Assembly: GCF_003334765.1 (NCBI RefSeq)
Contig: NZ_QOWT01000010.1
DNA length: 64,000 nt
From: Escherichia coli
GTDB lineage: Bacteria; Pseudomonadota; Gammaproteobacteria; Enterobacterales; Enterobacteriaceae
Strand: one strand, 5' to 3'
In this document: positions 34,445-34,729 of the stretch, piece by piece
How the letters are laid out: the number at the start of each line of letters is the position of its first letter
Numbering within the stretch: position 1 is the stretch's first letter
Notes under the pieces: model-generated
Database searches by the model: none
What the model saw: only the letters and a program-made list of their open reading frames with translations
What the model was told of the DNA's origin: nothing
Made by a program: the position numbers and the translations under genes

Positions 34445-34729
34445 TCAGGGCAAGCCGAAGGTAGCCTTTTTTATTTCGTAATCCTGTAGATATTCTTCCA
34501 GCGGTTTTGCCGTTCCCAGAGAATGAATTTCACCACTGTCTTTATCAATAATAAAAGGTGCGTTACCAGCTAAGCGCGCGGCCTCATCTCCAGTTTCGAG
34601 AAATTCTCGTGCTTCGAAACAGAAATACCAGCCCTGGCTAAAGCGTCCATGTAGAGTAATGACGACCGGGAGATCTGCATCATCAAGGTAATGGTTCGCT
34701 TTCGCGAATGCGTCGTGATAAGTAATCAT
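34445..34729 (-). CDS. yrhB: Small cytoplasmic protein YrhB
   Basis: 94-aa ORF recognised as YrhB; last gene of the yhhZ-yrhA-yrhB same-strand cluster. Confidence 0.8.
   Translation of the reverse strand: MITYHDAFAKANHYLDDADLPVVITLHGRFSQGWYFCFEAREFLETGDEAARLAGNAPFIIDKDSGEIHSLGTAKPLEEYLQDYEIKKATFGLP

Follow-up and report, generated by a model that had tools for sequence, protein, structure and literature searches.

yrhB lies at the edge of an AT-rich islet between ggt and yhhY

We analyzed a 64,000-nucleotide stretch of the Escherichia coli genome (RefSeq assembly GCF_003334765.1, contig NZ_QOWT01000010.1; hereafter the window), which spans the ugp-yhhA-ggt / yhhY-yhhX region, with a focus on the small gene yrhB. 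The gene occupies 34445..34729 on the minus strand and comprises 94 codons, the first being ATG, and a stop codon. Its translation runs MITYHDAFAKANHYL...KKATFGLP, its RefSeq name in thousands of E. coli genomes is 'yrhB: YrhB family protein', and the evidence below points to an orphan immunity gene of the Imm35 family. A first-pass annotation, made from the letters alone, had described a 94-codon gene on the strand of yhhZ (35670..36848) and yrhA (35179..35673), and we confirmed both the open reading frame (ORF) and its strand; upstream of yrhB, in the same orientation, follow yrhD, yrhA and yhhZ. The start codon is backed by homologs at nine other loci, all starting at the same M/V-I/V/M-x-[YF] position. 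A GTG-initiated ORF of 60 codons (34683..34865, minus strand), which is located in the AT-rich spacer and overlaps the beginning of yrhB in a different frame, showed neither homology nor annotation and is probably spurious.

On its 3' side, yrhB converges with ggt (32665..34407, plus strand), a conserved flank that is identified by ORF, annotation and synteny and by which the locus can be recognized in Citrobacter and Salmonella as well as in E. coli. The two stop codons are separated by 37 nt, and the gap holds a G+C-rich hairpin (34415..34438, plus strand), in which a 10-bp stem precedes a run of T residues on the ggt strand. This hairpin resembles a terminator for ggt and is possibly used by both genes. 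The opposite side of the variable locus is bounded by the conserved gene yhhY (37085..37573, minus strand; ORF and annotation).

The first-pass annotation had also placed yrhB inside an AT-rich islet and called its 5' region extremely AT-rich, which base composition bears out in part. The 199-nt spacer 5' of yrhB (34730..34928, minus strand) has a G+C content of 28.1%, but the AT-richness belongs to this spacer and not to the 5' part of the coding sequence. With 45.6% G+C, yrhB falls between yrhA, yhhZ and yrhD (28.5-34%) on the one hand and the flanking genes ggt and yhhY (52-55%) on the other, and it adjoins the AT-rich block at its edge rather than lying within it. Moreover, in strains carrying yrhB only, the stretch homologous to the window reaches no farther than ~15 nt upstream of the yrhB ATG; yrhB is therefore an indel unit separate from the AT-rich yhhZ-yrhA-yrhD block. 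The idea that it belongs to the same cassette as yhhZ and yrhA thus holds at the level of the polymorphic locus that they share, but not at the level of the module, as yrhB has a composition of its own, is found by itself in 233 genomes and shows no translational coupling to a neighboring gene.

The spacer marks the boundary of the yhhZ-yrhA-yrhD block and is the probable promoter region of yrhB itself. Promoter-like hexamers at 34760-34731 and 34753-34725 are weak candidates, as the number of sites in the scan was no greater than in shuffled sequences. Genomic systematic evolution of ligands by exponential enrichment (SELEX) placed a peak of RpoS holoenzyme in the yrhD-yrhB spacer (PMC5493296), and a review lists yrhB as cold-shock-stimulated, with an AT-rich 5' untranslated region (5'UTR) of the H-NS type and a weak Shine-Dalgarno sequence (PMC7873864). 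The RpoS peak and the H-NS-type 5'UTR agree with the window sequence and with a promoter of its own for yrhB. In the yrhB-only strain STEC307, the spacer is 109 nt long (locus L001, 3431..3539) and contains 23 nt that are 91% identical (E 0.001) to the sequence just 5' of the Citrobacter Imm35 gene (L004, 7924..7946), a marginal match that may be left over from an earlier arrangement.

YrhB is a full-length member of the Imm35 family

The first-pass annotation had tentatively suggested that YrhB belongs to a predicted immunity family, and the profile search it proposed supported this suggestion. Pfam Imm35 (PF15567) matched YrhB with an E value of 4.6e-23 (score 81.6) over residues 5-83, spanning the complete model (1-85/85). 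NCBIfam, in turn, holds no model that matched YrhB. Imm35 was defined as a predicted alpha+beta immunity family of polymorphic toxin systems with a conserved W and [ST], for which only Tox-PL1 and Ntox40 were given as toxin partners (Zhang, de Souza, Anantharaman, Iyer & Aravind 2012, PMC3482391). With YrhB as the query, 1018 of 1.84 billion cluster representatives matched at E <= 0.001. Among 78 aligned sequences, G33, W34, F36, G55, N56, P58, G66 and G72 were at least 90% conserved; YrhB has all of these residues, followed by T73, and thereby carries the family's W and [ST] signature. The AlphaFold2 model of YrhB (predicted local distance difference test score (pLDDT) 94.4, predicted template modeling score (pTM) 0.84) showed the order helix-strand-strand-helix-strand-strand-helix, in line with an alpha+beta fold.

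Sequence searches of the Protein Data Bank (PDB) with YrhB, the Imm35 profile and the toxin domain gave nothing significant, and a Foldseek search of the PDB with the YrhB model yielded no match at E < 0.1. Sequence and fold searches thus found no solved structure for Imm35, including YrhB, and the literature searched contained no published neutralization test of an Imm35 protein. The family membership itself is already known: Pfam lists it, and source annotations call the protein 'Immunity protein 35 domain-containing protein' or 'YrhB family protein'. In UniProt, the entry still reads 'Uncharacterized protein YrhB' (PMC12506659).

YrhB homologs directly follow Tox-PL1 toxin domains in five genera

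An immunity role would predict an association of YrhB homologs with toxin genes, and this association was found. Neither of the two outcomes that the first-pass annotation had named as refuting its idea, a lack of family membership and a lack of toxin association, was therefore observed. At three loci in Pectobacterium, one in Pantoea and two in Yersinia kristensenii, homologs 62-67% identical to YrhB start at or overlap the stop codon of cdiA, and the C-terminus of the respective CdiA consists of PT-VENN, DUF6862 and Gln_amidase (PF15644), the latter being the Pfam name for Tox-PL1. In a genome whose toxin is attributed by NCBI to Luteibacter, the gene for a more distant homolog (37% identical) comes directly after a separate gene for a 129-aa Gln_amidase protein, the two genes overlapping by 4 nt. 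Together with Salmonella, described below, Imm35 genes therefore lie directly 3' of Tox-PL1/Gln_amidase, with overlapping stop and start codons, in five genera (Pectobacterium, Pantoea, Yersinia, Salmonella and Luteibacter). The toxin domains retain the NC...H...DxQ signature that was described for Tox-PL1 (Zhang et al. 2012, PMC3482391).

Homologs also occur in other settings. In Enterobacter, the gene stands on its own. Limnobaculum xujianqingii carries an array of ~14 small genes on one strand (L008, 4672..11231), which opens with an unannotated 366-aa gene and includes two Imm35 copies as well as DUF596, DUF7336 and DUF6896/MafI2-like genes; it looks like a heterogeneous polyimmunity locus.

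The same chromosomal site encodes an Hcp-Tox-PL1 effector in Salmonella

The most telling comparison was with Salmonella enterica. Here, a 386-aa protein encoded beside ggt-yhhA-ugpQ combines an N-terminal T6SS_HCP domain (E 1.6e-13) with a C-terminal Gln_amidase domain (E 4.6e-16), and the next gene, which overlaps it by 1 nt, encodes an Imm35 protein of 92 aa that is 72% identical to YrhB. This Imm35 gene is common, its exact sequence being indexed in 5751 blocks of the sequence collection. YhhZ and the Salmonella effector share 75% identity over residues 1-230, but only 17% over residues 231-392. The common part is Hcp plus a linker that ends near EKLGGDA..GY.Q.LNEKT; at the DNA level, the match (70%) ends at window position 36192. 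Citrobacter freundii, in turn, has the layout of E. coli, that is, Hcp-HNH, a YrhA homolog (65% identical), an 85-aa gene, Imm35, an 86-aa gene and ggt.

Judged from these alignments and gene orders, the ggt-yhhY spacer is a predicted polymorphic Hcp-toxin locus, in which a constant delivery domain would be combined with swappable toxin/immunity modules and older immunity genes are left downstream. The arrangement typical of such loci, an Hcp/TssD domain with a variable C-terminal toxin and an immunity gene directly 3' of it, is present in the window, with yrhB as the third gene downstream.

At two of the ten Salmonella loci (L025 and L030, 7841..9001), the Hcp-Tox-PL1 gene is frameshifted by a 1-nt indel, so that in-frame stops appear from codon 3 on, and Imm35 is intact. 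This may reflect toxin decay with the immunity gene kept, or an assembly error.

yrhB is a widespread orphan under purifying selection

To place the gene in its population context, we counted locus configurations in 5,426 complete E. coli genomes. yrhB was present in 4087 of them (~75%), with a match of at least 80% length in 4049 of these copies. The complete yhhZ-yrhA-yrhD-yrhB block was found in 3758 genomes, yrhB alone at a ggt-yrhB-yhhY junction in the 233 genomes mentioned above, and an empty ggt-yhhY junction in 986 (~18%). A few strains depart from these configurations. In the O157 strain 180-PT54 (L003, 6842..7753) and in EC974 (L002, 3842..4754), a DUF4225 gene in the ggt-yhhY spacer replaces the yhhZ-yrhB genes; in EC974 it is frameshifted and accompanied by an additional 138-aa hypothetical gene. 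One further strain shows an IS1-associated deletion at the locus.

The suggestion that yrhB is an orphan was upheld. No toxin lies directly upstream of it, its neighbors being yrhD, yrhA and yhhZ (HNH), which makes the E. coli gene an orphan member of Imm35 rather than a non-member. Querying the islet (34300-37300) with four CdiA-CT Tox-PL1 sequences by tblastn revealed no Tox-PL1 remnant (best E 0.7). Likewise, the toxin DNA of Salmonella and Yersinia matched none of the E. coli genomes in a blastn search with word size 11, which divergent toxins may escape. As no Tox-PL1 toxin was found in E. coli, YrhB would have no role in self-protection there.

The coding sequence appears to be maintained. 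Among three E. coli yrhB alleles, the ratio of nonsynonymous to synonymous substitution rates (dN/dS) was 0.11-0.30 at a dS of 0.11-0.24; the corresponding ratio among cognate immunity genes was 0.05-0.10. An 88-aa E. coli protein with 57% identity to YrhB (P0089; L039, 8001..8267), which we had considered as a second paralog, proved to be a frameshifted allele of the same locus: its first ~45 codons are out of frame as compared to YrhB, and similarity is confined to the part from LAGNAPFIID on. This allele is probably inactive.

The neighboring genes form a probable Hcp-HNH effector module

The gene yhhZ falls into two parts. Its N-terminal constant region (36159..36848, minus strand), Hcp/TssD plus linker, is the part in common with the Salmonella effector and matched NCBIfam TssD with an E value of 3.8e-34 as well as Pfam T6SS_HCP. 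The C-terminal variable region (35670..36158, minus strand; residues ~231-392) is HNH-like, as indicated by a weak Pfam HNH match (E 0.013) and an HHKL...N...H motif in the alignment. The start of yrhA (35179..35673, minus strand; NCBIfam NF038335 'YrhA family', E 1.7e-35) overlaps the yhhZ stop codon by 4 nt (ATGA), and its product is the protein that is 65% identical to that of the gene following the Citrobacter Hcp-HNH gene. From its position, yrhA is the probable immunity gene of YhhZ. Between yrhA and yrhB lies yrhD (34929..35093, minus strand), a 54-codon ORF called 'protein YrhD' in RefSeq, for which we found no family match and no significant similarity to the 85-aa Citrobacter gene at the same position.

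Several further observations concern this neighborhood. yrhA is intact in the window; strains WEM25 and TUM23349 carry an IS1A element inside the islet, and yrhA is annotated as two pieces in WEM25, so that a strain of this kind is not the source of the window. One paper on genomic islands credits E. coli yhhZ-yrhAB with 'conversion of methionine to cysteine' (PMC3309015), which appears to be a name collision with the unrelated yrhA/yrhB of Bacillus subtilis. Next to ggt, a second small gene follows Imm35 in Citrobacter (86 aa; L004, 8302..8562) and, cut to 53 aa, in Salmonella (L022, 9367..9528), the two being 86% identical over 37 aa. At the ysgA-metE locus of E. coli O121 RM8352, its homolog (L038, 4007..4252) is located directly 3' of a tssD(Hcp)-'colicin' gene. 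At the DNA level, this homolog matched 1142 E. coli genomes; the gene is not found in the window. The 86-aa gene looks like an immunity gene for another Hcp-toxin class that was retained as a second orphan.

Discussion

Taken together, our analysis makes it probable, at roughly 0.68 by our own estimate, that YrhB is an Imm35 immunity protein against papain-fold Tox-PL1/Gln_amidase toxins, residing as an orphan at a polymorphic Hcp-toxin locus and guarding against incoming Tox-PL1 attackers. This reading builds on the family membership, the toxin-adjacent homologs, the synteny with Salmonella, the C-terminal swap, the absence of the toxin from the E. coli genomes searched and the purifying selection on yrhB. 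From these we infer how YrhB would act. As a small cytoplasmic alpha+beta protein, it would bind an incoming Tox-PL1 domain one-to-one and neutralize it by blocking either the Cys-His-Asp site or the substrate groove, thereby conferring protection across species against attackers that carry Tox-PL1, such as Salmonella, Pectobacterium, Yersinia and Pantoea. In E. coli and Citrobacter, the variable C-terminus is HNH-like, with yrhA as its probable own immunity gene and the Imm35 gene left downstream without its toxin. [quoted passage not shown] In that case, the ~75% of strains with yrhB should resist better than the ~18% with an empty locus, and the chaperone-like behavior reported for YrhB would be a side effect of a stable inhibitor fold.

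Several points limit the case for an immunity role. When the Salmonella Tox-PL1 domain and YrhB were modeled by AlphaFold2 as a fusion (a (GGGGS)6 linker and a paired alignment with linker anchors), both domains were well folded, but the pTM of 0.53 showed no confident complex, a value that speaks neither for nor against binding. Between YrhB and every toxin-linked homolog, 28-38% of positions differ. As allele specificity is common among immunity proteins, cross-protection is uncertain. The gene is missing from ~25% of strains, frameshifted alleles exist, although these sit in small clusters, and the yrhB ATG lacks a clear nearby Shine-Dalgarno sequence and lies in AT-rich DNA. The failure of the Salmonella and Yersinia toxin DNA to match any of the E. 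coli genomes belongs here as well. Finally, the sole published experiments on YrhB, as they are cited in PMC10723866, describe chaperone-like activity (Ahn et al. 2012).

The last point leads to an alternative in which YrhB is primarily a heat-stable, stress-induced, chaperone-like protein and its family membership is irrelevant to its present role. Following Ahn et al. 2012, reviews and strain-engineering papers treat it as a chaperone (PMC6598250, PMC10723866), one of them including it in a list of 30 E. coli chaperones (PMC6598250); its cold-shock stimulation (PMC7873864) and the RpoS holoenzyme SELEX peak upstream of it (PMC5493296) would fit a stress-induced protein. However, YrhB is homologous to no known chaperone family or fold, yrhB is an accessory gene, and the reported stability may be a mere property of the inhibitor fold. 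We consider this alternative unlikely. Only slightly less improbable, in our judgment, is that yrhB is a decaying relic, that is, a former immunity gene that has been drifting neutrally since the loss of its toxin and confers nothing. The absence of a cognate toxin from the islet and from the E. coli genomes searched, the weak translation signals, the frameshifted and truncated alleles and the 986 genomes with an empty locus are all compatible with decay. Neutral drift, in turn, sits poorly with the dN/dS values given above, with the near-complete length of 4049 out of 4087 copies and the retention of all near-invariant residues of the family, and with the 233 genomes in which yrhB was kept without the neighboring genes.

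The partner proposed by the first-pass annotation is unlikely to be the right one. Its suggested test would make YrhB a spare or second immunity protein against the HNH nuclease toxins of yhhZ alleles. In favor of this, yrhB lies on the yhhZ strand within the yhhZ locus, and surplus immunity genes are often arrayed at polymorphic toxin loci (Zhang et al. 2012, PMC3482391). Yet translational coupling to yhhZ is a feature of yrhA and not of yrhB, and in Citrobacter it is yrhA that varies together with the HNH allele. Imm35 was paired with Gln_amidase in every toxin-linked case observed here and never with HNH, the two partners named by Zhang et al. (PMC3482391) do not include HNH either, and yrhB persists without yhhZ in the yrhB-only genomes. 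We therefore regard an HNH target as very improbable. Because the predicted cognate toxin is Tox-PL1/Gln_amidase, the protection test against HNH toxins from other yhhZ alleles that had been suggested would probably turn out negative; the relevant alternative allele is the Salmonella Hcp-Tox-PL1 fusion.

Spare immunity genes that are retained without their toxin have precedents in the orphan modules of contact-dependent inhibition (CDI) systems, with orphan cdiI genes, and in acquired interbacterial defense clusters, with orphan T6SS immunity genes. The locus studied here resembles these in that an immunity gene was kept downstream of a toxin-immunity pair after a swap of the toxin C-terminus, and related heterogeneous immunity arrays occur in Limnobaculum and Citrobacter. 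CDI orphan modules usually retain a fragment of the displaced toxin gene, whereas no Tox-PL1 fragment was found at the E. coli islet. Nor is E. coli yrhB a cdiI gene in the sense of a cdiBAI operon, in which cdiI directly follows cdiA: its neighbors are ggt on one side and the Hcp-toxin locus on the other, and cdiA is absent from its surroundings, whereas the Pectobacterium, Pantoea and Yersinia homologs do occupy that position. As regards Imm35 (PF15567) in general, YrhB shares the full-length profile match, the conserved G-W and G-N-x-P, the alpha+beta fold, the size of ~90 residues and homologs directly after Tox-PL1, and the E. coli copy differs in having no adjacent toxin.

A close counterpart among described effectors is Hcp-ET5/ETi5 (Ma et al. 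2017, as summarized in PMC6099711), in which Hcp is joined to a toxin of the 'papain-like peptidase' type and accompanied by an immunity protein. The syntenic Salmonella pair likewise consists of Hcp plus Gln_amidase followed by Imm35, and YhhZ has its 230 N-terminal residues in common with the Salmonella protein; going by the one-line description in that review, Salmonella Hcp-Tox-PL1 appears to be Hcp-ET5. The E. coli locus differs in its HNH-type C-terminus with yrhA, which looks like the Hcp-ET1 class, and in having kept only the ETi5-like gene. Further candidates were Cpe1/Cpi1 and StbD-CT/StbI, papain-like cysteine protease toxins with their immunity proteins (PMC12136450; bioRxiv 10.64898/2026.05.07.723447). 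Here, too, T6SS- or CDI-delivered papain-fold toxins are neutralized by a small cognate immunity protein. Cpe1 and StbD-CT are, however, C39-type peptidases that cleave GyrB and ParE (PMC12136450; bioRxiv 10.64898/2026.05.07.723447), and we rejected them as the characterized version of the Tox-PL1 toxin: the toxin considered here belongs to PF15644, a different family, which makes the two systems analogs rather than relatives. A fold search with the fused model returned no solved structure at E <= 0.001. Closest to the modeled toxin domain was OspI, a glutamine deamidase of Shigella (E 3e-3, probability 1.00), with other papain-fold enzymes ranking behind it; the Cpe1-type entry 9l5u reached only E 0.74. 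Cpi1 blocks substrate binding and not the active site (PMC12136450), a mode that, by analogy, is a possible model for Imm35.

Beyond the known family assignment, this work contributes the toxin-immunity pair at the syntenic site in Salmonella, the swap of the C-terminus, the counts across E. coli genomes and a specific experiment. YrhB, a gene product without assigned function, now has a concrete candidate partner in the Hcp-Tox-PL1 effector encoded at the same chromosomal site in Salmonella. Should protection fail to materialize, our result would amount to a correct re-derivation of an existing database assignment. If it holds true, a common E. coli gene would rank as an orphan determinant of immunity to T6SS attack by Salmonella in the gut, and YrhB would offer a handle on the Tox-PL1 toxin family.
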